From a virus (Duplodnaviria > Heunggongvirae > Uroviricota > Caudoviricetes), in IMG/VR virus record IMGVR_UViG_3300030616_000569: 64,000 nt of DNA, one strand, 5' to 3'. A program made the position numbers and the translations under genes. The notes under the pieces are model-generated. The model saw only the letters and a program-made list of their open reading frames with translations. It ran no database searches and had not been told where the DNA came from. Of the stretch, positions 18,101-64,000 are shown one piece after another; within the stretch, counting starts at the first letter, position 1, and every line of letters begins with the position of its first letter.

Positions 18101-18501
18101 GAACAACTGGATGGGTTAATAATACACAAATTGATGAGTATAGATATGCATTTGGTGATGCCGATAGTGTCACTATTACATTATATGCAAGAAATGTAAA
18201 TTTCACAAATTCATCAACTGCAATTGTTCAATCATACTTTGATCCTAGTGTTGAATTCGAGGATTACGATATTGAAAAGACAATAGATGAGCATGGTGTT
18301 GGTCCAAAAACAGAAAAGAATCCATGGTTCCCATGGAGTGTTTATTCTATTGAAACAGGATCAATTGTATTTACATTTCTTGCTATCGTATTTTTCATTT
18401 CAGTATATTTGATATTTGTAAGAAATAAAGAAAACAAAAAGATATTCAAATATGGTGATTACATAATAGAATACATAAAAGAGAATAAAAAGAAGAAGTG
18501 A
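12136..18501 (+). CDS. giant surface protein (2121 aa) with repeated LamG/ConA-like lectin modules, N-glycosylation sequons, 7 tandem 20-aa repeats and C-terminal TM anchor
   Basis: Signal peptide; five LamG-type motifs (DGLVDEVRISDVCRNTSWINTTYNS; FDGLIDEVAMFNRTLSYDEI; FDGKLDELRFYNRSLSRDEL; FDGKIDEVMVFNRCLSYGEI; FNGVISDFIYWPNTS); 3 copies of a ~330-aa module (..PHISF..NTSSFIDxN.SL.GYWxF..); tandem xKKTSSTGYFTFGNFSx repeats; C-term TM + KKKK. Confidence 0.75.
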   Translation: MTKKRFGDYTSFFLTLLVCSTLGTNLVIPVVQRKNDFIASAEIDPWIIDGDTVYIDDTNVYASATPHTLNGDDEVVFEFMSKTYSGDIDIAWGFDTTVMKPTGISLWQNYVHNVSYLSKEQKWGCTTLYNVTAINPLDISDYDLYDVFLGNENNTFLYEVTHNCDDSGDVKQIYAFSDRSPSGPYTPGVNYTICGYYTTTVIRSCDETYFDWKDWDIDYTHVDWEHEGMTDWYVISDIPVVSGITYNCSINMTILDYNNGTIDGKYWFAFKPSSETLSEAYSNGHLYALDPWYDAGWSHRINISLNSSQVEKTMKEFPVLINITNSSLSYFAQSDGGDILFTDSSGSKLYHEIEDYDSSNGELVAWVNIDTLTSSVDTNISMYYGNPTCGNQWSVANTWNSGYYLVQHLQETSGTHYDSTSNDADSTSLYLTAQGSDYVIANGGDDFERTDVNYILFSDPGDFNTYTIELLIKPESLNNYETILGKYQKFHLDTQADARLAFSVEGTGGATLTNALTAGSWHYCSASVDGATCRLKCNDDYLPNSCTGNLDIDFAIGFRSGYWRVDAYDGLVDEVRISDVCRNTSWINTTYNSIMNATDGGFFLLDAQEELDADKPQISYVFPTPQNLNFSNVWDYVNINTSITDTTNTSSFIDFNTSLLGYWNFEYTNSTHVFDNSTHDHHARFKGGIDETDISAGIRGDCMDFDGTSEWLRAPNDIAKNMTESFTWSVWIKTATTSQDTIIGVNPANGANRYMLFVTATGVLSLYSGDAHHYTTVTVNDDIWHHIVVTRDHETGYNRFYIDSVRDDTGNYTTTSHIESTDNVSIGQEFDGAAASDFFDGLIDEVAMFNRTLSYDEIKSLYNSSDYSLSNNFTSLNEGTHTYQTYSIDRSGNFNITLLREFYIDLFYPHISFNEPRDEKYIFKDKDYALIDVDVTDTHNTSTFFDWCNSLTGYYSFDNHNAHYVNDNSSYDRNASFINGNLQDGNFTIAKYGEGLQFDGVDDTLNISTRQVISSEGTVEFWVKFDDVTKDQMVLIGGARGAQAKGTYDCGFIRLKGSDSKLYAGFYSSGDFDNTSSDSALVADTWYHISLIWSDRTRLRIDTVLQSANDVFTNVFTYWIDDFVIGRTMAGAVNDMYFDGKLDELRFYNRSLSRDELNASYNEALYPFVENYTGLSEDTYSMRIFSIDQYSNLNITPLKELLFDWTYPHISFVTPPTPNNNSYVDANRDYINVTTSISDVHDTSSFIDWNNSLVGYWSFDFVESIIAYDNSSYLNNGRLITMTTDNITVGIRGNCSDYCASLGSSIRVVNDDSLYSTPNNQWTIAAWIYPDVFSGNMVIARKKSDGGAYFIRLTSDGEFQSLLHFNTDSYTQISAGDINLSEWNHVAMTYDGSYRRHYINGQLVKKHTDAKTLEFSSDGDFYIGCNDGVSEYFDGKIDEVMVFNRCLSYGEINSTYNSSSYALYHNFTSLSGNHYPYRIYSIDEAGLLNITPVMNSYINRLPQFSNEFPLNSTYYYDMRPTVNVTIVDADNQTLNVTVLINASGSWTNVDNIYDYNYTVRQLDAAYRWMLDGDTVECIDSFPKTSGNNPDNITGIIPCGVFPLAKTFDGTEKIGLGSKAGVNTDTTLNRSFSGWFSTREIDTNSNGRIIWEEGGSSNSIVLYVHEESGENRLYLVCTEGTSIDYVYYPIEENRTYHVAATICHPDQEMKLYINGSLVASDTDGFATGEIMAAHSDGCCIGGPNGSPDGWDGSSVSGYFNGVISDFIYWPNTSSILTSSQISDIYMSGSGNYSYLYDSADEANTKYYWSVYVNDGVNNISQVYHFNTGNRSFKKTTSSGYFTFGNFSSFKKTSSTGYFTFGNFSNYKKTSSTGYFTFGNLSYNKKTSSTGYFIFGNFSYFQRTSTVGYFTFGNFSSFQKTTPTGYFTFANFSYFKKTSQCGYFTFNTSNRGDVSIDVDYEGIVAVLTPHWDYSITQYMWNVSENDGIYNGTTGWVNNTQIDEYRYAFGDADSVTITLYARNVNFTNSSTAIVQSYFDPSVEFEDYDIEKTIDEHGVGPKTEKNPWFPWSVYSIETGSIVFTFLAIVFFISVYLIFVRNKENKKIFKYGDYIIEYIKENKKKK
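17620..18039 (+). repeat. 7 tandem 60-nt (20-aa) repeats FKKTSSTGYFTFGNFS(S/N/Y) inside the 2121-aa gene
   Basis: Protein-level repeats nearly identical while nucleotide copies differ by many synonymous changes (e.g. tcaagtgga / tcaactgga / tcgtcaactggc / agtactggg). Confidence 0.7.
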
Positions 18502-20096
18502 TAATAATGTCAATATATAATATAATGGAAGATAGCCATATCAAAAAAACAATAAGTTTATTTGTCGTGTACTTGATGGTAATTTCAGTAGCAGGTGTCG
18601 TGTTTTATTTTACGTCAGATACTATAGCAAAGGGTGCAACAACAAGTGATTTTGACCATTGGCAAGAGATAACTATATCATCAGCGAAAGTTGGAAAGAC
18701 ACTTCATGATTTTCCAGTTCTCGTGTTCAACAACTCGTGGGTGATTGGGCTTGTTAGCAATGATTTCACATTTTTTCAACCAGATAATTCAACAGAATGT
18801 AATTGGGAATTAGAGAGATATAACACATCAACTGGTCAATTAATTGCTTGGGTAAATATTACAAGTGTCAGTGCTGATACTGATACAGTATTTTATATCT
18901 ATTGGGATGATGATGGAGATGGTGGTGAAAACAACCCAACAAAGACATGGGATAAAAATTATGTAACTGTATTTCACATGGATGGTGAATCAACAACTGA
19001 AGATGATTCTTCTACATATGGAAGAGATGGAACGATAGATGATTCAAACGTAAATCGTTCAAATGGAAAAATTGGATACTCACAGGAAAATCAAAATGAT
19101 AATGGTTATATTGACATATATGATTCATATGGAATATTTGACGGTGCTGCTGATTTTACGATTGAGGCTTGGGTTTTAAACACAAATCTTGGTGAAACTG
19201 ATTGGTTTTTGAAGTTTGGTGGAGAATGTGATATTCATATAAAAGTTGATGGTGACGATAATAACGATGACATTTATCTAAGAAATCTTCAAGGAGCAGC
19301 TTGGGTAAATATTGTCTATGCAACATCTATAACAGCTGATACATGGTATCATACAGCAATTGCATATGATGGTGATACTGGTTATAATCTTTATCTCGAT
19401 GGTGTTGTTGATGCAACAAATGCAGAACATGGTGCAATAGATGGGAATAATGCAAATAATGTTATCATGAATGAAGATTCTGCTTCAAATGGATGGGACG
19501 GTCGTTTTGACGAATTTCGTATATCTGATATACAACGTAATTCTAGTTGGATAAATGCAATATATAATAACACAAATGATCCATCTACATTTTTGTCTTT
19601 TGGTGAAACAAAACGTGATACTTCTCCAAGTGTTACAATGACTGATATGTCTATGACAGTTGAAGGTCAACAGAGCGAAATTGTTTATGCTAACTCATCT
19701 GGTTCTGAATATCAAACTGGTGTTATGGCGATTGGTATATTAGGAACAAACTATCTCGAAAGAATAACAATAAATGTTTCTGATATTGATGATGGAAATA
19801 TAGATGGTGATGACATATATGTACAATTTGATAACGATAACGTAAGCTGGTCTTCTAATTGGCTTCAATGTTCAGATGGTGGTACTTCTATTATAATCAA
19901 TGGCACAGAATGGGACACAAATGCCTATATGAATGGTGCTAATCCATTTACTGCTGATAATGATGGTGATGGATATGATGAGATACAGACGAATGTTAGT
20001 ATCTATATGAAGGTAAAAATGGTCATACCTAGTGGCATAGTAAATACAACATATACGAACAATGCAATGACATGGGATTCAGGAAGATATTCATAG
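18498..20096 (+). CDS. membrane-anchored LamG/ConA-like domain protein
   Basis: N-terminal TM; motif GRFDEFRISDIQRNSSWINAIYNNT paralogous to the LamG motif of the 2121-aa protein; ATGA overlap. Confidence 0.6.
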   Translation: MIIMSIYNIMEDSHIKKTISLFVVYLMVISVAGVVFYFTSDTIAKGATTSDFDHWQEITISSAKVGKTLHDFPVLVFNNSWVIGLVSNDFTFFQPDNSTECNWELERYNTSTGQLIAWVNITSVSADTDTVFYIYWDDDGDGGENNPTKTWDKNYVTVFHMDGESTTEDDSSTYGRDGTIDDSNVNRSNGKIGYSQENQNDNGYIDIYDSYGIFDGAADFTIEAWVLNTNLGETDWFLKFGGECDIHIKVDGDDNNDDIYLRNLQGAAWVNIVYATSITADTWYHTAIAYDGDTGYNLYLDGVVDATNAEHGAIDGNNANNVIMNEDSASNGWDGRFDEFRISDIQRNSSWINAIYNNTNDPSTFLSFGETKRDTSPSVTMTDMSMTVEGQQSEIVYANSSGSEYQTGVMAIGILGTNYLERITINVSDIDDGNIDGDDIYVQFDNDNVSWSSNWLQCSDGGTSIIINGTEWDTNAYMNGANPFTADNDGDGYDEIQTNVSIYMKVKMVIPSGIVNTTYTNNAMTWDSGRYS

Positions 20097-32871: not shown

Positions 32872-33003
32872 AAACAAAAAATTTAAGTACCAATATAAGA
32901 TACTTTTATATAAGTACACAAATCCACACAAAATCCATTGAAAATAGGATATGTTAGTATCAGATTCCATTAATTCTTGGTCGTGGCTCTTTGTGTACAT
33001 AAT

Positions 33004-33078
33004 AAAGAGTTGTTTTAGCTTGGTCTATTCTCCTGGACCCATAATCCAGGGACAGAGGTTCAAATCCTCTACTCTTTA
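33004..33078 (+). tRNA. degenerate tRNA-like element / possible tRNA pseudogene or att-site remnant
   Basis: Perfect 7-bp acceptor (AAAGAGT/ACTCTTT), canonical T-arm AGAGG-TTCAAAT-CCTCT, anticodon-like stem CCTGG/CCAGG, but 9-nt loop and extra nt between acceptor and D-stem. Confidence 0.3.
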
Positions 33079-33084
33079 TAAATC

Positions 33085-33216
33085 ATGATGGATTATTGTT
33101 TTAAATGTAATATGTATACAGAGTGTTTTTATATTACATTACCTGATGGTGATTATCCATATTGTAAACATTGTATAGATAGATACTCAAAGAAATGTTT
33201 TGAGTGTTTTCATTAA
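33085..33216 (+). CDS. small Zn-ribbon protein (not in ORF track)
   Basis: MMDYCFKCNMYTECF...CKHC...CFECFH, 43 aa. Confidence 0.3.
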   Translation: MMDYCFKCNMYTECFYITLPDGDYPYCKHCIDRYSKKCFECFH

Positions 33217-33290: not shown

Positions 33291-34475
33291 ATGAAAGAAT
33301 TAGGTGAATTTATAGACAAGATAGGAAATGAGTATGAACTTGGTGATCCATGGAAGTTCTCTAAGAAATCTATTGGTGTTATTGTTCCAATTATAACCAA
33401 AAATCAATTACGACGTGATTATATAACATATCCAGAAGTGAAAGATGATGTTAATGTTATCGATTCTGGAAGTATTGATAAATTGAAGATAGATGGTATA
33501 GACAAAAGTGTGTTTATAAAAGGTGGTACAATTTTTTCAGGTGTTGGTACACAGAGTAGAAGTATTGAACACTCGATTGTTTTAGATCCAAACTCTAAAA
33601 TTGATATAGATGTAAAATGTGTTCATGCTTCACATGGAATTCATCATGGATCAAGATTTGAATATAAAGGTGTTTCACCAAGAGTTGTTAGGTCAGCACT
33701 CAGTAACCCTAACTCTTATGGGAAACAGTCTAGTGTATGGAATAGTGTGAGTTCATATAATCTGTGTTCTAGAAATATGACTGGTCATGTTGGTAATAGA
33801 GTAGAAAGTGAAATAAGAAATGATGATCTTGTTGGTGTTCGTAATGCATCAAAGAGATTGGGATCAAAAATTGAAGATATATTAAATGAGGTTCCTGTAT
33901 TTGAGAATCAAATTGGTGCAATTATAATAGGATCAAATGGAATTGAAGGAATCGAAATGTTTGATCATCAGGATTCATGGAAGGCACAATATAAAGATGT
34001 GATTGAGTCCTATGATGATGTTTTCAATGATGAACAAAGTCTCTTTTCGATTGATGAGACAAAGATAAATGATTTTATTATTGGGTTTATTAATAAGATA
34101 AAGAAATCAGATTCTACAAATGTTGGAAATAATTGTTTTGTGATCAAATTCAAAGGGTATATTGGTGAGTATGTTATTCACAATAACCGTATAATTCATC
34201 TGTTTGTTATGAAGTATGATGAACCAACAAAAAATGATCAACAGTCTCTTCAATATCAATCATTTGGTCATCGTCCATCTGGACTCGATCATATTGTTGG
34301 ATCACTTAACAATGGTCCAAAAACATGGAGTGAATTATTTGAGTCGTCTAAAGTTAGCACATCTACACTTTCTTCTCGGTTGAAAGAACTTGAGAAAAAT
34401 GGTTTTGTAAAAAGAACACTAAGAAAAAATGGGTCAAAAACAAAGAATGTTTATAAATTGAATGATATAAAATAG
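33291..34475 (+). CDS. protein with C-terminal winged-helix HTH (putative transcription regulator)
   Basis: C-terminal GPKTWSELFESSKVSTSTLSSRLKELEKNGFVKR typical wHTH; N-terminal 300 aa unknown. Confidence 0.5.
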   Translation: MKELGEFIDKIGNEYELGDPWKFSKKSIGVIVPIITKNQLRRDYITYPEVKDDVNVIDSGSIDKLKIDGIDKSVFIKGGTIFSGVGTQSRSIEHSIVLDPNSKIDIDVKCVHASHGIHHGSRFEYKGVSPRVVRSALSNPNSYGKQSSVWNSVSSYNLCSRNMTGHVGNRVESEIRNDDLVGVRNASKRLGSKIEDILNEVPVFENQIGAIIIGSNGIEGIEMFDHQDSWKAQYKDVIESYDDVFNDEQSLFSIDETKINDFIIGFINKIKKSDSTNVGNNCFVIKFKGYIGEYVIHNNRIIHLFVMKYDEPTKNDQQSLQYQSFGHRPSGLDHIVGSLNNGPKTWSELFESSKVSTSTLSSRLKELEKNGFVKRTLRKNGSKTKNVYKLNDIK

Positions 34476-34644
34476 TAAAATTTAAATACTAATATGACAT
34501 ACTATATACGATGTTATATGGGCGGACTTTGTTCGCCTCCATTGCATCCCCTAATGTGATTACTATGACACTATCGTGTTTATCAAGTTTGCTCAGTTCC
34601 TGAGCATGCATTTGCCTTTAGTGTCACCTCTTTTTTGTCTTATT

Positions 34645-34779
34645 ACCGATGTGCCTGAGTGGATTATGGACCAGACTTAAATTTTTTGACTATTATCGAT
34701 TTAAGGGTTAAACTCAAAATCCATTGATGAGATATCTGGGTGGGCAGCCACAACGTCGGTTCGAATCCGACCATCGGTA
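34645..34779 (+). tRNA. tRNA-Leu(TAA) with 52-nt archaeal-type intron (34682-34733) at 37/38
   Basis: Acceptor ACCGATG/CATCGGT; anticodon stem CCAGA/TCTGG with loop CT-TAA-A|intron|A; 15-nt extra arm; T-arm GTCGG-TTCGAAT-CCGAC; no encoded CCA. Confidence 0.6.
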
Positions 34780-34782
34780 TTT

Positions 34783-34867
34783 GCCAGTGTAGTCAAGTGG
34801 ACGATGACGGTATGTTTAGAACTTACTTTCCGAAGGGAACGCACAGGTTCGAATCCTGTCGCTGGCA
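34783..34867 (+). tRNA. tRNA-Leu(TAG)
   Basis: Acceptor GCCAGTG/CGCTGGC, D-stem GTCA/TGAC, loop TT-TAG-AA, long extra arm, T-arm ACAGG-TTCGAAT-CCTGT. Confidence 0.7.
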
Positions 34868-34871
34868 CTAT

Positions 34872-34956
34872 GTCCATATGTCGGAGTGGTTTAACGAACT
34901 TGGTTGCTAACCAAGTTGATGGAGACATCACTCAGGTTCGAATCCTGATATGGACG
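34872..34956 (+). tRNA. tRNA-Ser(GCT)
   Basis: Acceptor GTCCATA/TATGGAC, anticodon stem CTTGG/CCAAG loop TT-GCT-AA, 16-nt extra arm, T-arm TCAGG-TTCGAAT-CCTGA. Confidence 0.75.
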
Positions 34957-34962
34957 TCATTT

Positions 34963-35046
34963 GCTGGTGTGCCAGAATGGGATTGGCACGGTCTTGAAAA
35001 CCGTTGGCTCTGTTAAGAGATGCAGGTTCGAATCCTGTCATCAGCG
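34963..35046 (+). tRNA. tRNA-Ser(TGA)
   Basis: Acceptor GCTGGTG/CATCAGC, D-stem CCAG/TTGG, anticodon stem ACGGT/ACCGT loop CT-TGA-AA, 17-nt extra arm; followed by T6 tract. Confidence 0.75.
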
Positions 35047-35270
35047 TACAGAACGTGTTTTTTCTATCTTTAAAAACCATAAAGTTTTTATACCCTTAAC
35101 ATATATTATATTTAGATGACTATGTATAATAAACGTAATCAATGGCATTGTGCACCATATCCAACCTTTATAGGTGTGGATAGAGCCACAATTGTCGAGT
35201 GATTATGATGGTCGTCTCTTGTTTTTGTGATTGTCTATCTCCTTCAATGGGAGACGATGCATTGTTTGTT

Positions 35271-35343
35271 TGCTCTCATAGTGTAGCCAGGAATCATCTC
35301 TGACTGTCTATCAGTGGACTGGGGTTCAAATCCCCATGAGAGC
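35271..35343 (+). tRNA. tRNA-Asp(GTC)
   Basis: Acceptor GCTCTCA/TGAGAGC, anticodon loop CT-GTC-TA, T-arm TGGGG-TTCAAAT-CCCCA. Confidence 0.65.
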
Positions 35344-35348
35344 GTAAG

Positions 35349-35702
35349 GTGAAAGAGCCTATGAAAAAATATGTAAAAAATATAATTGATCTAAAAGAAC
35401 AGAAAACGATAACGTATAGTTTGGAAAATAAAAAAGAAGAATACAAGTTGATCATAACATTTGACCATAAACCAAATATTGTCGGTCCAAGAAGTGAATA
35501 CAATGGTCTTCCAATATGGATTGGTAAAACAATCGCAACTGCTAAATTCGATGGTAAAACAATTAAAAAAGAAGCATTCTGTTGGTTAAATGAACCATTC
35601 CAATATGAGCAAGCAAGAGTTGTTTGTGCAGGAAGAATCCTCAAAGCTGCAAAACTTCCAACAGCACTATCTGAACAAGTGAAGGACAAACCCCTTCACT
35701 GA
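35349..35702 (+). CDS. hypothetical protein
   Basis: 117-aa ORF right after tRNA-Asp (ATG at 35361 also possible); antisense ORF 35294..35689 considered a shadow. Confidence 0.4.
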   Translation: MKEPMKKYVKNIIDLKEQKTITYSLENKKEEYKLIITFDHKPNIVGPRSEYNGLPIWIGKTIATAKFDGKTIKKEAFCWLNEPFQYEQARVVCAGRILKAAKLPTALSEQVKDKPLH

Positions 35703-35706
35703 TTCT

Positions 35707-35837
35707 GTTCCTGTGGTCTAGTGGCCAATGATTTCTGGCTTTCACAAAGAGAGTGGGGTAGCGTGCACACAATCAGAAAGCTATACCCTGCTTTGAAGTT
35801 ACCAGGAGATCGGTGGGTTCGAATCCCCCCAGGAACA
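35707..35837 (+). tRNA. tRNA-Glu(TTC) with 56-nt intron (35745-35800) at 37/38
   Basis: Acceptor GTTCCTG/CAGGAAC; anticodon stem TCTGG/CCAGG; loop CT-TTC-A|intron|A; intron end GAAG pairs loop TTTC (BHB-like); T-arm GTGGG-TTCGAAT-CCCCC. Confidence 0.65.
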
Positions 35838-35847
35838 CTATGTAACT

Positions 35848-36063
35848 ATGTCAAGAACGTATAGATTAAAAAAATATGAAAACGGAAAGCCGATATACAC
35901 AAGACATGAGAATAAGTATCCACCATATAGATGGTATAGACATGAATTCTCAGAAGTTCGAAGAAGTATTTACCGATCATATAGAATGAAACAAAAACAG
36001 TATTTCAAGAGATTCGGTGAATATTTACCATTCAATCCAACAAATGGTTGGGAGACATGGTAG
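35848..36063 (+). CDS. small basic Tyr/Arg-rich protein
   Basis: 71-aa ORF ending at the G-1 of tRNA-His. Confidence 0.4.
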   Translation: MSRTYRLKKYENGKPIYTRHENKYPPYRWYRHEFSEVRRSIYRSYRMKQKQYFKRFGEYLPFNPTNGWETW

Positions 36064-36132
36064 AGGTGGTGTAATTGGCAAGCATTGCAGACTGTGACTT
36101 TGTAGGAGTGGTTTCGAGTACCGCCCTCTACC
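36059..36132 (+). tRNA. tRNA-His(GTG) with encoded G-1:C73
   Basis: G-1 + acceptor GTAGAGG/CCTCTAC + discriminator C; anticodon loop CT-GTG-AC; T-arm GTGGT-TTCGAGT-ACCGC. Confidence 0.7.
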
Positions 36133-36136
36133 CTTT

Positions 36137-36209
36137 GTGTCAGTAGAACAATTGGGAGTTCGCCATCCTGAAGAGGTGGATATTGTCGGTTCAAGTCCGA
36201 TCTGACACA
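36137..36209 (+). tRNA. tRNA-Phe(GAA)
   Basis: Acceptor GTGTCAG/CTGACAC, D-stem GAAC/GTTC, anticodon stem CCATC/GGTGG loop CT-GAA-GA, T-arm GTCGG-TTCAAGT-CCGAT. Confidence 0.75.
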
Positions 36210-36211
36210 CT

Positions 36212-36715
36212 ATGAAAGTAACGTTACATGTGCCTAGAAAGGAGAGTAAATATATGCTAATATCATTCATAGAGCGTGAATTAACACAAGCTCGTAATAT
36301 TAGGTCAAAAGAAACGAGAGAGTCTACATTGTCCGCATTAGAGATGATAAAAAAGAATCTTATTCAACATGGTAGTGGCAAAGCATACAACTGTGATGGC
36401 GAATCAATAAATGTGTATGATTATGAAGGAAACACAAAGACATATTACTGTGGAAATAAGTATATAAGTCACAATATACCAGAGAAATATAGATGACTGC
36501 TCGTTTGTTTTGATGCAAATGATTTGTATGTCGGTGAATCAAACATGAAGATAGTGAGATTAATACTCCATAAAGAAAGTCACGTTCCAAGAAAACATGG
36601 AAAAGGTGGCCAATCACAAAGAAGATTTGAGCGTGGTAGATTAGAATCACTAAAACATTGGTTTAAAACAGTAGCAGAAATAACATACGAGACACATAAT
36701 GACAAACTGATATGA
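36212..36715 (+). CDS. miniature aRF1/eRF1-like release factor (N-domain + GGQ motif), interrupted by one in-frame TGA at 36494-36496 (pseudogene or programmed readthrough)
   Basis: Part 1 (36212-36493): ARNIRSKETRESTLSALEMI and YYCGNKY align to eRF1 TASNIKSRVNRLSVLGAI and YLCDNKF. Part 2 (36497-36715, same frame): VPRKHGKGGQSQRRFERGRLESLKHWFKTVAE aligns to [32 protein letters not shown]. Alignment is continuous across the TGA; C-terminal domain absent (~167 aa vs ~410). Confidence 0.6.
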
Positions 36716-36842
36716 CTAGGGTGTAACTCTATTTACAAATCTCAGATCATGAAGTATATGAGTAATGAACTCAGAATAACGTGGAAACAATCTGTTTCCA
36801 TTGATGATAATTGCCTTTGGCAACTTGCTGGAATATCTAGAA

Positions 36843-36916
36843 GCACAGATAGCACAATCTGGTAGTGCATCACGTTTACACCGTGACGGTTGTCGGTTCG
36901 AATCCGTCTCTGTGCA
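36843..36916 (+). tRNA. tRNA-Val(TAC)
   Basis: Acceptor GCACAGA/TCTGTGC, D-stem GCAC/GTGC, anticodon stem TCACG/CGTGA loop TT-TAC-AC, T-arm with TTCGAAT. Confidence 0.75.
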
Positions 36917-36919
36917 TTT

Positions 36920-36991
36920 GCCGTTGTGACGGAGTGGTAACGTCTCTGGCTGCAAACCAGATGTTCGCCTGTTCAATTCAGGTCGACGGCT
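36920..36991 (+). tRNA. tRNA-Cys(GCA)
   Basis: Acceptor GCCGTTG/CGACGGC, anticodon stem TCTGG/CCAGA loop CT-GCA-AA, T-arm GCCTG-TTCAATT-CAGGT. Confidence 0.7.
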
Positions 36992-36993
36992 CT

Positions 36994-37104
36994 ATGAAAT
37001 GTCTAAAATGTAATAACACATGGAAAAGGACAAAAGTTAGTGAGTATATATCATTCGCTTCAAAGTGTCCAAAATGTGGATCAAGATCATTGCTAAGGTA
37101 TTAA
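36994..37104 (+). CDS. small Zn-ribbon protein
   Basis: MKCLKCNNTW...CPKCGS (CxxC..CxxC), 36 aa, starts 3 nt after tRNA-Cys; upstream part of track ORF 36865..37104 overlaps tRNAs and is rejected. Confidence 0.35.
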   Translation: MKCLKCNNTWKRTKVSEYISFASKCPKCGSRSLLRY

Positions 37105-37105
37105 T

Positions 37106-37180
37106 GGATCTTTAGCTCAGTCAGGTCAGAGTTGCAGACTCTTAATCTGTTAGTCACGGGTTCGAATCCCGTAAGATCCT
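37106..37180 (+). tRNA. tRNA-Lys(CTT)
   Basis: Acceptor GGATCTT/AAGATCC, D-stem GCTC/GAGT, anticodon loop CT-CTT-AA, T-arm ACGGG-TTCGAAT-CCCGT. Confidence 0.75.
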
Positions 37181-37187
37181 CTTATAT

Positions 37188-37261
37188 GAATCTGTAGCTC
37201 AGCTAGGTAGAGTACTCGGCTTTTAACCGAGTGTGCAGGGGTTCGATTCCCCTCAGATTCG
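37188..37261 (+). tRNA. tRNA-Lys(TTT)
   Basis: Acceptor GAATCTG/CAGATTC, anticodon stem CTCGG/CCGAG loop CT-TTT-AA, T-arm AGGGG-TTCGATT-CCCCT. Confidence 0.75.
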
Positions 37262-37267
37262 TTTAGT

Positions 37268-37343
37268 GGTGCTGTAGCTGAGTCTGGTCTAAAGCAGACG
37301 GCTGTTAACCGTCCGACCATCGGTTCGAATCCGATCGGCACCG
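37268..37343 (+). tRNA. tRNA-Asn(GTT)
   Basis: Acceptor GGTGCTG/CGGCACC, anticodon stem GACGG/CCGTC loop CT-GTT-AA, T-arm ATCGG-TTCGAAT-CCGAT. Confidence 0.75.
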
Positions 37344-37344
37344 T

Positions 37345-37572
37345 ATGAGTCAAATACCAGAAAATGTAAAAGAAGAGTCTATCAGAATTAAAAAAGATCT
37401 TTCAATGATAGAAAAAGGGTTTCGAAGATGCCCAGAATGTAATAAATGGGTGAAGATGAAACATCATCACAATGTGAATGGTATCATTATGAATCCATTC
37501 AAAGATAATGGTATTCGCAATGTTGTTGATTATGAATGTGAATGTGGACACAAATGGACAAATAGATACTAA
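37345..37572 (+). CDS. small Zn-ribbon protein
   Basis: CPECNKW...CECGHKW, 75 aa, between tRNA-Asn and tRNA-Ala. Confidence 0.45.
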   Translation: MSQIPENVKEESIRIKKDLSMIEKGFRRCPECNKWVKMKHHHNVNGIIMNPFKDNGIRNVVDYECECGHKWTNRY

Positions 37573-37574
37573 AT

Positions 37575-37648
37575 GTGCCTGTAAGTCAGCCTGGAAGACT
37601 ACCTCATTTGCAATGAGAAAGCCATGGGTTCAAATCCCATCAGGTACA
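37575..37648 (+). tRNA. tRNA-Ala(TGC) with G3:U70
   Basis: Acceptor GTGCCTG/CAGGTAC gives G3:U70 identity pair; D-stem AGTC/GACT; anticodon loop TT-TGC-AA; T-arm ATGGG-TTCAAAT-CCCAT. Confidence 0.75.
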
Positions 37649-37764
37649 CTATGACGAAAATATATGATAAAGAATTAAAGAAGTTCAGATCTTTGCGAGA
37701 AGGTGAAGATCCATCTATTACATGGGCAGAAGCAATGTCTCGTGGTGGAAGAAAGTATTAAATT

Positions 37765-37890
37765 GGGACTTTGACCAAGAGGTAAGGTGCTCGGCTCATA
37801 TCTGTGTGTCTGAGATTAATCCGTGTGTGGTTACTTAATTTACACAGTGAGAAACCGAGTTATGCACAGGTTCGATCCCTGTAAGTCCCA
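37765..37890 (+). tRNA. tRNA-Met(CAT), elongator type (G1:C72), with 53-nt intron (37801-37853) at 37/38
   Basis: Acceptor GGGACTT/AAGTCCC; anticodon stem CTCGG/CCGAG; loop CT-CAT-A|intron|A; T-arm ACAGG-TTCGATC-CCTGT. Confidence 0.65.
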
Positions 37891-38080
37891 CTATGGAGAA
37901 TATAGTACATGTTCAGTGGATTGGTTCAGTTGATGGATTAACCAATGAAGAAATAAAAAAGAATGCAATAAAGAAGATTCTAGATGAAGGATATTGGGAA
38001 ATAAATGATGAAAGTGTATGATATATATGTGATCAAATGATAATGTCAATACTAATATTAAATGATAAATACAGAAAATT

Positions 38081-38155
38081 GGTTGTGTAACACAGTCTGG
38101 TTAGTGTGCATGTCTGATAAGCATGTGGTCGTTGGTTCGAATCCAGCCACAACCA
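38081..38155 (+). tRNA. tRNA-Ile(GAT)
   Basis: Acceptor GGTTGTG/CACAACC, D-stem ACAC/GTGT, anticodon stem CATGT/GCATG loop CT-GAT-AA, T-arm GTTGG-TTCGAAT-CCAGC. Confidence 0.75.
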
Positions 38156-38157
38156 CT

Positions 38158-38319
38158 ATGAAAACAACATATAACATTGATGGAACTATTACGATCGATA
38201 TGTATAGAGACTTCAAGAAATTCCTCTGGAAATCTCGTTTCATGATGTGGCGACTTTCAATAGATAGAGATTTCACCATTAAAGAGAAGATAAAAATATT
38301 TATTACAGGAAGGATATAA
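38158..38319 (+). CDS. small hypothetical protein
   Basis: 53-aa ORF beginning right after tRNA-Ile (track ORF 38062..38319 trimmed to first ATG outside the tRNA). Confidence 0.3.
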   Translation: MKTTYNIDGTITIDMYRDFKKFLWKSRFMMWRLSIDRDFTIKEKIKIFITGRI

Positions 38320-38475
38320 ATGGTAACTGAAAATATTAGAGATATGAGTAATTGGGAATATGCATGGCGACATAACAAGCCTCAGTATAAGTGTGTCACA
38401 TGTGGTCATATTCAAGATCATGATGGTGGTCCAACTGGGAGATGTGACAATTGTCACAGAGAGTGGAAGAAATGA
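38320..38475 (+). CDS. small Zn-ribbon protein (not in ORF track)
   Basis: CVTCGH...CDNCH, 51 aa; its TGA overlaps ATG 38472 of next gene. Confidence 0.3.
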   Translation: MVTENIRDMSNWEYAWRHNKPQYKCVTCGHIQDHDGGPTGRCDNCHREWKK

Positions 38476-38906
38476 GGTTCCCAGAAAAATACATAAAAAA
38501 TGGAAGATTCAAACTTCACAGTGGTGATCTATCTAATATATTCTATGATGTGAATGAGTTACTTACTGATTGGGATCATCTTCATGGTGTTATTACAAGA
38601 TATATAGACAATTTCAGGTGTACCAAAAGGTATTTTGACACCCATGTTGGTATAGCAACAGGTGGTGCGATAATTGCATCATCATTTATTCCATATGCAA
38701 TGATAAAAGATGATGAGTTAAAAGGCAAGTGTGAAGGTCGTTATTGTCTTATAGATGATGTGGTAACAACTGAAACAAGCATCAGGAAAGCAATTGATAT
38801 GATTGGTTATGATCCTGAAGTTATCATTGTTTGTATAGATAGGAGAAAGAAAAAGAAACTTGACATTGTATCAATATATAACATTGAAGAGAATTGGATA
38901 GAATAA
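38472..38906 (+). CDS. type-I phosphoribosyltransferase, orotate-PRTase-like (short)
   Basis: FKLHSGDLSNIFYD resembles OPRTase FTLKSGRKSPYFFD; PRPP-binding loop YCLIDDVVTTETS; track start 38451 (in-frame alternative). Confidence 0.5.
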   Translation: MRFPEKYIKNGRFKLHSGDLSNIFYDVNELLTDWDHLHGVITRYIDNFRCTKRYFDTHVGIATGGAIIASSFIPYAMIKDDELKGKCEGRYCLIDDVVTTETSIRKAIDMIGYDPEVIIVCIDRRKKKKLDIVSIYNIEENWIE

Positions 38907-38909
38907 CAT

Positions 38910-38980
38910 CTCCGCTTGGTGTAATGGCAACATAGGTGGCTGTAGACCATCTGTTATCGGTTCAAGTCCGATAGTGGAGA
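38910..38980 (+). tRNA. tRNA-Tyr(GTA) with C1:G72 (archaeal/eukaryal identity)
   Basis: Acceptor CTCCGCT/AGTGGAG, anticodon stem GGTGG/CCATC loop CT-GTA-GA, T-arm ATCGG-TTCAAGT-CCGAT. Confidence 0.65.
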
Positions 38981-38983
38981 CTT

Positions 38984-39056
38984 GGGTGTATAGCACAACT
39001 GGAAATGCGTCTCCCTTCGAAGGAGTTGATTGAGGGTTCGAGTCCCCCTATACCCG
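38984..39056 (+). tRNA. tRNA-Arg(TCG)
   Basis: Acceptor GGGTGTA/TATACCC, anticodon loop CT-TCG-AA, T-arm GAGGG-TTCGAGT-CCCCC (one mismatch). Confidence 0.65.
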
Positions 39057-39104
39057 CTGAAAAGATGATGGTTATTCGTGATTAATCTTTACAATGGTCT
39101 AACT

Positions 39105-39178
39105 GGGAATATAGTTCAGTTTGGAAGAACAGGAGGCTCCAACCCTTCAGGTCATGCGTTCGAGTCGCATTATTCCCA
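39105..39178 (+). tRNA. tRNA-Trp(CCA), no intron
   Basis: Acceptor GGGAATA/TATTCCC, D-stem GTTC/GAAC, anticodon stem GGAGG/CCTTC loop CT-CCA-AC, T-arm ATGCG-TTCGAGT-CGCAT. Confidence 0.7.
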
Positions 39179-39223
39179 CTAATACTGTAAAAGATACGTT
39201 TATTCCTGATATTAGGACAGATT

Positions 39224-39296
39224 GCCACTGTAGCAAAATTTGGCGTTGCGTCTCCCCTGTAAGGAGATAAAGTGGGTTCGATTCCTGCCAGTGGCT
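39224..39296 (+). tRNA. tRNA-Thr(TGT), unusual C33
   Basis: Acceptor GCCACTG/CAGTGGC, D-stem GCAA/TTGC, anticodon stem TCTCC/GGAGA (perfect) with loop CC-TGT-AA, T-arm with TTCGATT. Confidence 0.55.
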
Positions 39297-39433
39297 TATG
39301 TTATAAGGTGTAGCAACAGGAAGTTGCAGTCTTAAGGAAATGAGTATTGAGAAGACATAGCGGAAAGAAATATTGCGCAAGAAAATTTAATCAACAGAGA
39401 CAAAAGTGGATAAAAATATTCAATAACCGAAAA

Positions 39434-39520
39434 AGTCCCATAGGTTAGTGGTAAACCACCTGACTTTGAAAACAATGTTGAAGACATCAGGTAATATGAG
39501 TTCGATTCTCATTGGGACTG
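39434..39520 (+). tRNA. tRNA-Gln(TTG) with 16-nt intron (39470-39485) at 37/38; A1:U72
   Basis: Acceptor AGTCCCA/TGGGACT; D-stem GGTT/AACC; anticodon stem CCTGA/TCAGG; loop CT-TTG-A|intron|A; T-arm ATGAG-TTCGATT-CTCAT. Confidence 0.65.
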
Positions 39521-39521
39521 T

Positions 39522-40346
39522 ATGATTTACAAATGTAAATATTGCTCAAAGGAACTTGATTCAGTTTCTTCTATTGGTGGACACACGGCAACATGCAAAT
39601 TCAATCCAAATTACGAAAAAAATAAAAAGAACATGTGGAAGATTACAAAAAATGAATATACTATGATCTGTAAAAAGTGTAATACTGAATATACTGTGTT
39701 TGAGACACCAGAAGCAATTTCAAGGGGAAAATACAGAAAGTATTGTTCAAGAAAATGTGCTAATAGTAGAATGTGGAATGATAATGACAAAAAGAAGATT
39801 AGTTTTGGTATGACAGGAAAACATTGGTATTATGTTGAATCACCATGCAAAAATTGTGATATACACTTCATACATAGAAGTGATGATAATAGAATGTATT
39901 GTTCAAGTTTTTGTGCAAGTTCTCACATTGGAAGAAAAATTGGTGGCAGAAGCGAAATTGCATGCAGAAAAATTCGTGAACAGTTTAGAAATGGTAGAAA
40001 AGTAAAGGGTGGTTACACAAAATGGTACAACTACAAAAACATTCGAGTCCAAGGAAACTTAGAACTCCGTATGTGTAAAATCCTTGACAAAATGAAATCA
40101 TTAAACCTCATAAAAGATTGGGAATACACTAATGATAGGTTTCCATATACTGGACTTGATGGAAAACAACACACATACTTAGTTGACTTCAAAGTATGGC
40201 GGAATGATAACACATCATTCTATGTCGAAACAAAAGGATATGAAAGAGAAAATGATAAAATTAAGTGGAAAAGTGTTATTAATACTGGATATTCAATAGA
40301 AATATATAAGAGAAAGGATTTAAAAACAATGGAAAATATATTATGA
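39522..40346 (+). CDS. triple Zn-finger protein with C-terminal PD-(D/E)xK-like nuclease motif
   Basis: Three C-x2-C..(Y/F)CS-x2-C-x3-H units; C-terminal LVDFKVW...FYVETKGYE fits D..(D/E)xK; located inside tRNA array. Confidence 0.45.
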   Translation: MIYKCKYCSKELDSVSSIGGHTATCKFNPNYEKNKKNMWKITKNEYTMICKKCNTEYTVFETPEAISRGKYRKYCSRKCANSRMWNDNDKKKISFGMTGKHWYYVESPCKNCDIHFIHRSDDNRMYCSSFCASSHIGRKIGGRSEIACRKIREQFRNGRKVKGGYTKWYNYKNIRVQGNLELRMCKILDKMKSLNLIKDWEYTNDRFPYTGLDGKQHTYLVDFKVWRNDNTSFYVETKGYERENDKIKWKSVINTGYSIEIYKRKDLKTMENIL

Positions 40347-40972
40347 AAATATGTGCAATGTCCGACTTGCATGGGCATGAAGTTCCTATTCCTAAATGTG
40401 ATGTATTAGCAATAGCTGGAGATATTAGTAAATTTGGAGATGTTGAATGGTTTAACACACAATTTATCTCCTATCTAAACAAATACAAGAATAAATTTGA
40501 TAAATGTATTATGGTGTTCGGTAACCATGATGATAACTTTATGACGCAAAAAGATGAATTAAAAATTCCTGAATACCTCGAAATTCTTTATTCTAAAGGA
40601 TACAACTATAAAGGATATATATTTTGGGGATCACCATTCATTGTTGATTCACCTGAAATTGTTTCATCATTATATTCAGTACAGGAAAAGACTCTAAAGA
40701 AAATATTTCAAGAAATGAATCCAAACACTGATGTACTTATAACACATTCACCACCATATGGTATTGGTGATACATTGAAAGATCAATCTTATCATCTCGG
40801 TAGTGAATCATTGATGGACAAAATCATGGTTGTTCAACCCAAGATACATATCTTTGGACATATTCATACTGGTGAAAAATACACAAAAGGAATGTGGACC
40901 AAATTCTATAATGTTTCTATTCTTGATGATTGGTATAATGTTAGATACAAACCAACAATGATTAATTTATAA
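40343..40972 (+). CDS. calcineurin-like metallophosphoesterase
   Basis: Motifs MSDLHGH, IAGDIS, VFGNHDD, ITHSPP, GHIHTG. Confidence 0.65.
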   Translation: MKICAMSDLHGHEVPIPKCDVLAIAGDISKFGDVEWFNTQFISYLNKYKNKFDKCIMVFGNHDDNFMTQKDELKIPEYLEILYSKGYNYKGYIFWGSPFIVDSPEIVSSLYSVQEKTLKKIFQEMNPNTDVLITHSPPYGIGDTLKDQSYHLGSESLMDKIMVVQPKIHIFGHIHTGEKYTKGMWTKFYNVSILDDWYNVRYKPTMINL

Positions 40973-40973
40973 T

Positions 40974-41048
40974 GAGCTTGTGGTGTAATCTGGTTATCAT
41001 CCTCCGTTTGGAGCGGAGAGATTGCAGGTTCAAATCCTGCCTTGCTCA
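40974..41048 (+). tRNA. tRNA-Pro(TGG), acceptor stem with two U-U mismatches (possibly degenerate)
   Basis: Anticodon stem CTCCG/CGGAG loop TT-TGG-AG; T-arm GCAGG-TTCAAAT-CCTGC; acceptor GAGCTTG vs CTTGCTC pairs 5/7. Confidence 0.45.
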
Positions 41049-41055
41049 CTCATTT

Positions 41056-41126
41056 GCGACGGTTGGTTAATGGCAAACCGTGAGCCTTCCAAGTTCATAC
41101 TGTGGGTTCGATTCCCTCTCGTCGCA
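41056..41126 (+). tRNA. tRNA-Gly(TCC)
   Basis: Acceptor GCGACGG/TCGTCGC, D-stem GGTT/AACC, anticodon stem TGAGC/GTTCA loop CT-TCC-AA, T-arm with TTCGATT. Confidence 0.7.
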
Positions 41127-41132
41127 TCATTT

Positions 41133-41206
41133 GTCCTCGTGGTCTAACTGGATGGGCACCAGACTTCTAATCTGTGAACATAGGGGTTCGAGTCCCCTCG
41201 GGGACA
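41133..41206 (+). tRNA. tRNA-Arg(TCT)
   Basis: Acceptor GTCCTCG/CGGGGAC, anticodon loop CT-TCT-AA, T-arm AGGGG-TTCGAGT-CCCCT. Confidence 0.7.
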
Positions 41207-41207
41207 T

Positions 41208-42411: not shown

Positions 42412-42654
42412 ATGAAAAAATGGCAAGATAAGGTAATGATGATACTCGGATTTGGATTTGGTTTTATGCTGATACCAATGCTTTTAGATTCTTTAAACGG
42501 TAATACTGTAAATATTATAACAGCATGCTTAACGTCTATTGCATTATATATAACAGCATATTGTATGTACACACTTGATTTAAAACTTTCATTCACTTCT
42601 AATATGTTTTCTGCATCAATGTGGGGTATTTTAGCGATACTTTCATTTTTGTGA
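42412..42654 (+). CDS. small membrane protein
   Basis: 80 aa, three hydrophobic segments. Confidence 0.4.
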   Translation: MKKWQDKVMMILGFGFGFMLIPMLLDSLNGNTVNIITACLTSIALYITAYCMYTLDLKLSFTSNMFSASMWGILAILSFL

Positions 42655-42995
42655 CAATAATTATTATAGAAATGTTTTTGATAACATAATTTATATATGA
42701 CATGGAGAAATGAAAAATGAGAAGAAGAATATTGTTTGGAAGAAAAGATGGTAGTAGAATAGGTGAAAAGTCAGGTGGTCGTGGGAGAAATAAGACAGAT
42801 AAATGTCGCCATCCAACTAAAAAATCAAAGTAATTTTGTGTTGTCATGCAAGCAATTAAAGACATGTTGATTAATATTGTCTTATTTGGGATTTGGGGAA
42901 CATTTTGTTTTTTGCTTGGGATGTATTTCGCATTAAATTAAAATCTTCTTTTTTTCAATTTTGAATTTATTTTTATTTTGTTGACTAAATATTTA

Positions 42996-43092
42996 ATAAC
43001 TATATCATATAAATGATATAGTGCTATTATTTCGCACCTTTTGTAAGTGTAATTTCTAAAACCAAAATAACTATATAGTATAAAGTATATAG
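42996..43092. repeat. cluster of short direct/inverted repeats (AATAACTATAT x2; CTATATCAT-ATAA-ATGATATAG palindrome; TATATAG x3) upstream of recombinase gene
   Basis: Read directly in the 440-bp AT-rich intergenic spacer preceding 43100. Confidence 0.4.
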
Positions 43093-43099
43093 CTATTTT

Positions 43100-43654
43100 A
43101 TGTCAAATTTGTATGTAAATGACGTTAGAATTTTTCGTCCGTGGGAAGTCACAAAATTAATTGACAATATTCCAAAAGACGAAAATAGATGCAAATTTGA
43201 AGTTTTATTGTATACAGGCGGTAGATATACAGAAATACAATCATTATATGACAATCCAAAATGGTTCAATGGTGTTTCTATACAGATGCCAAACACAAAA
43301 CATCTTGTAAAAAAGAAACAGAAGACTAGAAATATACGTCTAAACCCAAAGGGACAAAGAGCTGTTAATGAATATTTATATAGATGTGAAACAGGATTAC
43401 CGCATTATACAAATTGGTATAGAGATCTAAAAAGATGGTGTAGATATGCTGAGATCGGTGATGATAATGTCGGAATTACGTCAACAAGAAAGACATGGGT
43501 TTCATGGCTTGTATCAAAATATGATACGAAGACAATATACATATTTACATCGATGGGACATACAATAAATACATCTATAAATCATTATCTAAACCTTGGA
43601 TTCACTGAAGATGATCTTTCTCAAATGGATACATATGTTAGTGGGTGGATATGA
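43100..43654 (+). CDS. short tyrosine-recombinase (integrase)-like protein
   Basis: EVLLYTGGRYTEIQSL (box I Arg) and ..SMGHTINTSINHYLNLG (H-x-x-x-Y region); only 184 aa (catalytic domain only); 3' of tRNA array. Confidence 0.4.
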   Translation: MSNLYVNDVRIFRPWEVTKLIDNIPKDENRCKFEVLLYTGGRYTEIQSLYDNPKWFNGVSIQMPNTKHLVKKKQKTRNIRLNPKGQRAVNEYLYRCETGLPHYTNWYRDLKRWCRYAEIGDDNVGITSTRKTWVSWLVSKYDTKTIYIFTSMGHTINTSINHYLNLGFTEDDLSQMDTYVSGWI

Positions 43655-63836: not shown

Positions 63837-64000
63837 TATATTGCCTTTTAGTCTACATAAGGGACTAGGCAAACATGCAAGGTTTGATGATAATGGTGTG
63901 CTACAAAGCAGAATACCATATAACAACTTTTTTTCTTACCATGCGACTGCAATATCCTCATTTGCTATTACAACAGATGACACGAATAAAATGTATGATC

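Follow-up and report, generated by a model that had tools for sequence, protein, structure and literature searches.

Site-specific tyrosine recombinases are, to our knowledge, normally described as needing an N-terminal DNA-binding domain, the one well-known exception being the bacterial proteins FimB and FimE. Here we describe a gene for a 184-residue tyrosine recombinase with the catalytic domain alone, together with two inverted repeats directly upstream of it, at positions 42995–43654 of a 64,000-nucleotide stretch of viral DNA, hereafter the window (Caudoviricetes; IMG/VR record IMGVR_UViG_3300030616_000569). The window, the sizeable open reading frames (ORFs) of which are all on the + strand, belongs to a metagenome contig of 98,148 bp. 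We propose, with confidence that stands about midway, that 42995–43654, possibly extended back to ∼42836, is a self-contained site-specific recombination module of an uncultured archaeal tailed virus, in which dimers of the protein would bind both sites, repress their own gene, and cross over at the distal site, site A.

FimB and FimE, which act at the Escherichia coli type 1 fimbrial switch, are likewise catalytic-domain-only proteins of ∼200 amino acids (Pfam covers residues 12–181 of 200 in FimB and 14–166 of 184 here), they align with the family of the window protein from residue 9, and their genes adjoin the DNA sites acted on just as the window gene adjoins its candidate sites. The similarity is nevertheless remote, at 7 bits to the family profile, and the Pfam score is 197 bits for FimB compared with 20 here. 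The fimbrial proteins carry an H-x-x-R motif where this family has K/T-x-x-R, the hosts here are archaeal or viral, and no invertible segment was found; instead, two palindromes lie 71 bp apart at the gene's own promoter. In Cre/loxP of phage P1, the recombinase gene lies beside its site. The targets of Cre/loxP and XerA/dif resemble in form the sites described below, a 28–34-bp inverted repeat around a short centre, and the lack of variants here agrees with the way in which the Cre/loxP and Xer/dif systems leave a genome unaltered as long as it is monomeric. In contrast to our protein, however, Cre and Xer possess a core-binding N-terminal domain that forms a C-shaped clamp, and the present locus differs further in having two tandem sites over a promoter, with spacer lengths that vary among lineages.

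An archaeal mobile-element context and a fold match to SSV1 Int are held in common with SSV-type and other archaeal integrases. As set out in a review of archaeal tyrosine recombinases (PMC8371274), those enzymes have ∼300 amino acids or more with an N-terminal domain and integrate at tRNA genes, the SSV-type attP lying inside the int ORF. In the present family the sites lie outside the ORF, the gene is not split, and the sites are intact in integrated elements that carry an integrase of their own. The lambda-type integrases have arm-binding and core-binding domains, and their elements are flanked by direct att repeats, often a duplicated 3′ part of a tRNA; neither feature is seen here. MrpR has core-binding and catalytic domains, has lost most catalytic residues, and binds a repeated element at many promoters (PMC10516654). 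With MrpR, YopR, and SroF of the SPbeta-like phages the window protein has in common the recombinase fold and, probably, binding sites at a promoter, and self-repression is likely; unlike the MrpR type, the window family keeps its catalytic residues, and its motif is confined, within the ∼75 kb read, to its own promoter. Integron cassettes and eukaryotic Cryptons resemble the locus as portable units with a boundary at the outer arm of a palindrome, in the Crypton with the recombinase as the only gene, but here there is no attC-like two-box palindrome, no cassette array, and no site at the other end. The architecture of the protein matches that of FimB/FimE, the site-plus-gene logic of the locus matches that of Cre/loxP and Xer/dif, and the fold is closest to archaeal XerA.

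A Predicted Catalytic-domain-only Tyrosine Recombinase

The ORF at 43100–43654 (+ strand) was assigned as a tyrosine recombinase gene from Pfam and PHROG matches, a fold model, Foldseek comparisons, and alignments. Pfam Phage_integrase (PF00589) matches the 184-residue protein with an E-value of 5e-4 and 20.3 bits, under the curated cut-off of 27.1 bits, with profile positions 5–168 of 172 set against residues 14–166, and the matches of its 8 close relatives to this model are all weak (best 2e-5). The match to the PHROG_1 integrase family reaches 5e-9, and the best NCBIfam match is XerA, at ∼14 bits against a cut-off of 220 bits. Neither single-protein nor profile searches matched any solved structure by sequence, DNA and protein searches of 50,697 phage records with the region and the protein returned no match, and the recombinase was unmatched in a PADLOC defence-system scan. 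An AlphaFold model built on 8 homologues has a predicted local distance difference test score (pLDDT) of 86.5, and with this model Foldseek retrieved tyrosine recombinases from the PDB almost exclusively, down to an E-value of ∼1. Matches with a probability of 0.99–1.0 and a template modeling score of ∼0.5–0.6 include XerA (4a8e), XerH (5jk0), Tn1549 Int (6en0), SSV1 Int (3vcf), and lambda Int; the archaeal XerA structure 5hxy falls in the same range of probability, and no structure matches better than XerA. Ranks 9 and 12 are taken by the catalytic domain of SSV1 Int and rank 14 by Phi3T SroF. Among viral structures the closest is AMDV4_10, whose uncultured-virus record appears from its name to belong to the acid-mine-drainage virus set.

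Candidate active-site residues are R42, E45, T127 (lysine in most relatives), R130, K131, H154, and Y163, an assignment made from motif positions in alignments rather than from residue-level structural superposition. In a diverse alignment of 54 family members, R130, K131, L137, and G153 are invariant, and R42, E45, R77, H154, Y163, and a C-terminal G-W are conserved in at least 90%; the window protein keeps the conserved tail as G-W-I. Three positions before R130 most members have lysine, giving K127-x-x-R130 as the norm, where the window protein has threonine. Residues 64–76, the stretch in which the β-hairpin lysine would be sought, are lysine-rich and have low pLDDT. As judged from these alignments, the family thus appears to retain the residues that an active tyrosine recombinase should have, R...E...(K/T)xxR...H...Y, with K-x-x-R in place of H-x-x-R. 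K-x-x-R is also the form found in type IB topoisomerases.

There is no N-terminal core-binding or arm-binding domain in the 184 residues, the Pfam catalytic domain beginning at about residue 14, and an in-frame N-terminal extension of the ORF is not possible. A first-pass annotation of this DNA had called the ORF tyrosine-recombinase-like, and the fold (pLDDT 86.5, Foldseek probability ∼1) and the conservation of R42, E45, R130, H154, and Y163 agree with that call. On the strength of the model, the ORF is best described as a real, unusually small site-specific recombinase that consists of the catalytic half alone.

Two Inverted Repeats Upstream of the Gene

Between the recombinase gene and the previous sizeable ORF lies a gap of 445 bp (42655–43099) with a GC content of 25.4%, compared with 32.8% for the window, much as the first-pass annotation had described it (an AT-rich spacer of ∼440 bp). 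Its further description of this spacer, as holding direct repeats, a perfect palindrome, and TATATAG copies, also stands. Exact copies of the 11-mer AATAACTATAT lie at 42995 and 43066 and nowhere else in the 64-kb window, and a copy with a single mismatch is found on the opposite strand at 43087; TATATAG or CTATATA is present at 43071, 43072, and 43086, and the spacer contains several perfect palindromes of 8–11 bp. The gene caller also placed a 38-residue ORF in the spacer (42719–42835), which we ruled out as a partner of the recombinase, the small upstream ORFs of relatives being non-homologous.

The repeats resolve into two inverted-repeat sites of 32–34 bp, neither of which is assigned a strand. 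The distal one, site A (42995–43028), reads AATAACTATATCATATAAATGATATAGTGCTATT, has a perfect 10-4-10 core (ACTATATCAT-ATAA-ATGATATAGT), and is centred ∼90 bp before the ATG; it was defined by motif search and by its conserved position in relatives. The proximal one, site B (43066–43097), reads AATAACTATATAGTATAAAGTATATAGCTATT, ends 2 nucleotides before the ATG, and contains a TATA-like CTATATAG/TATAAAG; it was defined by motif search and has an equivalent beside the ATG in relatives. The centres of the two sites are 71 bp apart (70–95 bp in relatives), and their central sequences have the same rather than opposite orientation. The motif ACTATAT-N6-16-ATATAG occurs in the 64 kb at sites A and B only, compared with 0.09 occurrences expected, and 0 of 100 shuffles reach this count; because the motif is unique to these two places, we regard the upstream sites as real rather than a product of chance. 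In the ∼75 kb of the 98,148-bp contig that were read, the motif is confined to the promoter region of the recombinase itself. Some 41 kb away from the recombinase, within the 3′ end of a coding region (1708–1729), there is a weak third site-like palindrome, AATTACTATATATGGAATATAG, with the same 7- and 6-nucleotide half motifs and a 5-nucleotide spacer; it has probably arisen by chance.

The remaining AT-rich non-coding stretch upstream of site A (42836–42994, likewise without strand) was delimited from homology edges in relatives and from composition. It may belong to the module, since the homology of the two closest high-identity pairs of relatives begins at about −267 to −270.

A Large Archaeal Family

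A word-indexed search found 8 close homologues, all of 184–191 amino acids. An exhaustive profile search (E ≤ 1e-3) returned 471 representatives of clusters at 50% identity, nearly all of 180–220 amino acids, and a second, at E ≤ 1e-10, returned at least 596 clusters at 90% identity, all of 178–216 amino acids, across which the annotations are “integrase” or “hypothetical protein” only. Members come almost entirely from archaea and archaeal viruses. When one genome per prokaryotic species was scanned with an 18-sequence profile, 32 loci were found, almost all of them archaeal, the best in a Heimdallarchaeota genome (51% identity) and others in Promethearchaeota, Thermoplasmata/DHVE2, Thermococci, Archaeoglobi, Methanomicrobiales, Halobacteria, and Methanosarcina. 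SsrA of the Methanosarcina element pC2A was considered as a described relative and set aside, since its gene, at ∼970 bp, is not of the short type (PMC9569500). A term search of the review of archaeal recombinases (PMC8371274) for an archaeal class consisting of the catalytic domain alone gave no hit, and a term search of a general tyrosine recombinase classification (PMC8138268) likewise found no such archaeal class. This is a large and uncharacterised archaeal family with a conserved and unusual cis architecture. At five archaeal loci (L019, L020, L022, L024, and L032) the recombinase adjoins type I (HsdM/HsdS) or type IIG restriction-modification genes.

The upstream regions of homologues cannot be aligned overall; rather, one layout recurs with sequences specific to each lineage. 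A distal inverted repeat, with arms of 9–13 bp and spacers of 2–13 bp, begins ∼100–120 bp before the ATG, and a full or half copy of the distal arm lies at about −38 to +17, over a TATA box of the cTTTATATAgt type. Half-site sequences differ by lineage and include TAACGTTTT, TACATTTCT, CTATCGTTTT, GCATAGGTTT, ATCTTAATGT, and ACTATAT. Locus L017, for example, has TAACGTTTT-acaag-AAAACGTTA at −119 and TAACGTTTT again at −34, and L020 has TACATTTCTAT-ac-ATAGAAATGTA at −117 and TACgTTTCTT-ca-AAGAAAtGTA at −21; L022, L023, L024, L028, and L035 show the distal and proximal layout likewise. In ∼12 metagenome loci a distal ATCTTAATGT-N13-ACATTAAGAT is followed by AATCTTtatatagt-N7-ACATTAAGAT before the ATG, often with an extra ACATTAAGAT in codons 3–6. 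The lineage closest to the window (L046, L086, L008, and L005) aligns directly with sites A and B, and the two-site layout as a whole spans Asgard, Thermoplasmatota, Thermococci, Archaeoglobi, Methanomicrobiales, and viral lineages. In many relatives (L056, L064, L068, L074, L076, and L097) a conserved TATAAGGAGT/TATATGGAGT element and then a GGAG...CTCC hairpin lie between the distal and proximal sites, as in L068 (AAGGAGTAG-N9-CTACTCCTT); the window has no clear equivalent.

We compared these upstream regions with control intergenic DNA from the same loci and found a mean inverted-repeat score of 7.8 compared with 6.3, with scores of 9 or more in 10 of 30 family upstream regions and in 12 of 204 controls. 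A crude automated test for a distal inverted repeat plus a proximal arm copy was positive in 20 of 59 non-redundant loci compared with 16% of shuffles, and this test fails to detect several cases that are clear by hand. Because the recombinase is the only conserved gene at these loci, the simplest inference is that the protein itself recognises the upstream sites, and from the recurrence of the two-site layout in many lineages the repeats are very probably protein-binding sites tied to the recombinase. The suggestion in the first-pass annotation of arm-type or att-like binding sites is therefore partly upheld, in that the layout recurs in homologues; the arm-type label does not hold, as the sites are core-type inverted repeats and the protein, which like all of its relatives is short (178–216 amino acids), has neither of the domains that bind arm or core sites.

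The Module as a Portable Unit

All-against-all BLAST of the ORFs within 5 kb at the 32 loci found no conserved neighbouring gene, and on the contigs of the closest relatives (47–65% identity) the recombinase is the only ORF similar to anything in the 64-kb window. Modules that are 77–96% identical in DNA sequence occur in unrelated flanks, with homology confined to the module and the contigs continuing on both sides. The module is thus a portable unit across unrelated genomic contexts. Upstream, homology starts 0–13 nucleotides beyond the left arm of the distal palindrome for six pairs (L075/L079, L069/L072, L064/L069, L019/L020, L029/L030, and L022/L024) and at about −267 to −270 in L046/L086 and L057/L085, and the downstream edge is usually a few nucleotides from the stop codon. 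In the pairs of highest identity the edges vary, at −115, −125, −267, and −270 upstream and at −6, +418, and +511 downstream. L072 and L069 have flanking blocks in common, with a 3.3-kb insertion or deletion exactly at the upstream edge and another of ∼480 nucleotides at the stop codon. A 166-bp segment just upstream of the module is inverted between L080 (642–807) and L084 (7502–7667), at 74% identity. In L047, the cassette and a small AbrB/SpoVT-like ORF lie between perfect 69-bp inverted repeats (1–69 and 1141–1209), which may mark an invertible segment or an assembly artefact, as one copy is at the contig end.

At seven archaeal loci (L023, L025, L029, L034, L037, L040, and L042) a separate integrase of 300–430 amino acids is encoded 2–5 kb away, with a strong Phage_integrase match and in one case also a SAM-like N-terminal domain; primase or helicase genes are nearby in several of these loci. 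Chromosomal copies of the recombinase are intact, full-length ORFs of ∼190 amino acids with both palindromes intact upstream. Given that the palindromes are intact in elements that are evidently integrated, they were not used as attP.

Three further samples yielded contigs co-linear with the window in this region, differing from it at no more than 2 positions, and for one relative a context of 10.5 kb is 100% identical in the 7 contigs compared, from 7 samples, the same protein occurring in 44 collection blocks. The contigs of the same virus from the three other samples show repeated breaks around the cassette, at 42066 (two samples), at 44218 (two samples), and at 42441/42573, and one, from SRR8554435, begins at 43021, inside site A; this recurrence suggests strain-level variation or rearrangement there.

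The tRNA Array

Upstream of the module, ARAGORN with introns allowed found 25 tRNA genes covering 20 amino acids between 33003 and 41207. The first (33003–33079, + strand), placed at 33004 and described as an aberrant tRNA-like element by the first-pass annotation, is indeed divergent: the D stem is made of U-U mismatches, whereas the acceptor, anticodon, and T arms are perfect. It has a CCCAUAA loop and, if read from 33004, a possible A1:U72 pair. It had been likened to the tRNA fragments duplicated at integration sites. It is, however, a whole tRNA-shaped gene with a CAU anticodon, the only Met tRNA of the 25, the others of which cover the other 19 amino acids, and we regard it as a divergent tRNA-Met(CAU)-like gene belonging to the viral array. 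The Rfam tRNA model (E ≤ 0.1) found the other 24 tRNAs and not this one, presumably because its D stem is degraded. The remainder of the array (34644–41207, + strand; ARAGORN and Rfam) is context for the module. Introns follow position 37/38 in Leu(taa) (34644–34780, 52 nucleotides), Glu(ttc) (35707–35838, 56 nucleotides), and Gln(ttg) (39434–39520, 16 nucleotides), with a fourth, ambiguous intron-bearing tRNA at 37765–37891; all four were missed by default ARAGORN and found by Rfam, and such short tRNA introns point to an archaeal host.

The first-pass annotation had further proposed that this element and the recombinase could delimit a mobile tRNA island of ∼10 kb. A search of 32950–33130 against 42600–43110 found no common repeat, the longest common string being 9 nucleotides, which is the median of 300 random controls, and the window holds no other copy of the 33003 element of 14 nucleotides or more. 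Among 30 other family loci, 5 have a tRNA gene within the fetched flanks (L005, L021, L034, and L084 among them), and only L005 has a tRNA array. In L005, a distant virus, the recombinase lies between tRNA sub-blocks similar to those of the window (Pro-Gly-Arg and Leu-Ser-Ser), with tRNA sequences that are generically similar only. No close relatives of the virus were found in IMG/VR with two neighbouring proteins as queries. With no end repeats, no link between the family and tRNA arrays, and separate integrases at other loci, the island does not hold up; the viral tRNA array is merely a neighbouring gene block.

Other Features of the Virus

The 25 tRNAs and their introns, a fragment of an eRF1 domain, giant tail-fibre-like or lectin proteins, and TATA-like promoters together make the window virus look like an archaeal tailed virus. 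The eRF1 fragment is a 56-residue ORF at ∼36545–36715, inside the tRNA array, with similarity to eRF1 domain 2/acVLRF1. Beside the first tRNA, 33291–34475 encodes an ARPP-1 domain fused to a winged-helix (MarR/TrmB-like) domain, and further into the array an ORF for an HNH-type endonuclease-like protein (39522–40346) adjoins a metallophosphatase (40343–40972) with a match (2e-47) to PDC-S10, a candidate defence family in PADLOC. At 12136–20096 lie a 2121-residue protein with five Laminin_G_3/concanavalin-like lectin domains and pentaxin- and sialidase-like parts and then a 532-residue protein with one such domain; these are probably host-recognition fibres. From 46264 to the end of the window at 64000, and on to the contig end, there is a very large biosynthetic cluster of the sugar-modification or nonulosonic-acid type. 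It encodes a sulfotransferase, several methyltransferases, MptE-like proteins, two CMP-sugar synthetase-like proteins, UDP-GlcNAc 2-epimerase, a hexapeptide acetyltransferase, and NeuB, as well as a DegT aminotransferase, a Polysacc_synt_2 dehydratase, an HMGL-like and MptE fusion, an HAD phosphatase, UDP-glucose dehydrogenase, a C5-epimerase, and a GT1 glycosyltransferase.

Discussion

From the observed fold, conserved residues, site layout, and portability of the module, we infer binding, self-repression, and a type of reaction as follows. Transcription would start from the TATA-like element inside site B, and dimers of the recombinase would bind sites A and B. Occupancy of site B, which covers the TATA-like box and abuts the start codon, would repress the gene's own promoter, so that site B would serve as an operator, with site A as the main site of recombinase binding and crossover. 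Recombination would take place between copies of site A on sister or multimeric replicons or on co-resident elements; its outcome would be the resolution of dimers or cointegrates, keeping the replicon monomeric, with an occasional swap of flanking DNA. The mosaic junctions would hug site A because this would be the crossover site. On this reading, the module would be a self-contained and probably self-repressing recombination cassette, with a logic like that of Cre/loxP or FimB.

A number of observations weigh against this proposal. The Pfam score is below the curated cut-off and no solved structure is matched by sequence, the H/K position of the HxxR motif is threonine in the window protein, and the core-binding domain with which Cre and Xer clamp DNA is absent. 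The argument for binding of the protein to the sites is drawn solely from their co-occurrence and co-variation. Arm spacers that range from 2 to 13 bp across lineages are unusual for crossover sites, and A- or T-runs extend the distal palindrome in many lineages, which may thus act in part as a terminator or insulator. Homology edges at the stop codon are unexplained by a pure resolution function. The weak palindrome at 1708–1729 could be a third site, and the finding of a single locus covers ∼75 of the contig's 98 kb. Finally, there was no dimer, circle, or rearranged variant among the compared contigs, whether of the same virus or of the relative, although such constancy is what one would expect if a system for resolution or regulation left the monomer as it was.

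That same invariance would also suit a protein that represses its own promoter, and perhaps others, and has lost DNA recombination. Both sites are at the gene's own promoter, the proximal one over the TATA-like box and start codon, and there is a precedent for a repressor with the recombinase fold (PMC10516654), with Phi3T SroF among our fold matches. However, MrpR keeps 3 of 7 catalytic residues (PMC10516654), whereas R, E, K/H-x-x-R, H, and Y are present here in at least 90% of the 54 members; the site motif is at no other promoter in ∼75 kb of the genome. A pure autoregulator lacking any further target would offer no obvious selective advantage, and yet the module occurs widely and passes between elements. 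We therefore consider a repressor-only role improbable. It is similarly doubtful, in our estimate, that the module is a minimal mobile element whose recombinase excises and inserts its own cassette of ∼0.7–0.85 kb in a manner comparable to Cryptons or integron cassettes. The 77–96% identical modules in unrelated flanks, with sharp edges near the distal palindrome and the stop codon, the L072/L069 insertions or deletions exactly at both module edges, and the recombinase as the sole gene common to otherwise unrelated viruses are what such an element would leave behind. Against this, neither a further site or half-site downstream of the stop codon nor a target-site duplication was found, the variable edges in the pairs of highest identity fit homologous or illegitimate exchange as well as precise transposition, and a relative has one fixed context in all 7 of its compared contigs. 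Were the element autonomous, which we think unlikely, then at 0.7–0.85 kb, for palindromes, promoter, and gene together, no tyrosine-recombinase transposon or cassette known in prokaryotes would be smaller, and it would spread between the viruses, plasmids, and chromosomes of archaea, the Asgard archaea included, making mosaic junctions at its palindrome.

The remaining readings are less probable still. Reading and scanning ∼75 of the contig's 98 kb turned up no further integrase, and the SSV1 integrase catalytic domain is among the fold matches, as would suit a lysogeny integrase of the virus itself with site A or B as attP; integrated chromosomal copies nevertheless have both sites intact and a separate full-length integrase, and the palindromic sites are dissimilar to tRNA genes, so that we give this reading little weight. 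An invertase in the manner of FimB/FimE, flipping the promoter segment between the two sites or a larger segment between distant inverted repeats, would share the catalytic-domain-only architecture, and it would draw on the 69-bp repeats around the L047 cassette and on the restriction-modification neighbours at five loci. It seems very unlikely to us, given that the site centres are merely 71 bp apart (70–95 bp in relatives) with central sequences in direct orientation, that no inverted variant was seen in contigs from four samples or in the 7 contigs of the relative, and that one L047 repeat copy lies at a contig end, where it could be an assembly artefact. Least credible of all is that the recombinase is the integrase of a ∼10-kb mobile tRNA island, the ends of which would be the 33003 tRNA and att-like or arm-type repeats at 42650–43100. 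The gene does lie 1.9 kb past the last tRNA, the 33003 tRNA is aberrant, and the distantly related L005 virus contig also has the recombinase among tRNA genes, but the proposed ends share at most the 9 nucleotides of the control median, the 33003 element, a CAU tRNA of full length, supplies the one amino acid otherwise missing from the set of 20, and the protein lacks an arm-binding domain. Moreover, strand orientation continues unbroken through the island and base composition shifts only by the GC that the tRNA genes add, most family loci are without a nearby tRNA, and the family co-occurs with real integrases.

The importance of a self-contained recombination module at this locus comes mainly from the family-level pattern rather than from the single locus, with the tRNA-island lead removed as false. 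The family points to a gap in the classification of recombinases: it is a large archaeal family of proteins even smaller than FimB/FimE, with a K-x-x-R variant of the active site and pairs of palindromes specific to each lineage, and it is found across many archaeal phyla, in their viruses and mobile elements, with relatives in genomes of the Heimdall and Loki types. If these enzymes are active, they would be the simplest natural pairs of recombinase and site from archaea and candidate orthogonal tools for genome engineering in archaea, with dozens of ready-made specificities, and they would generate mosaicism among the viruses of archaea.

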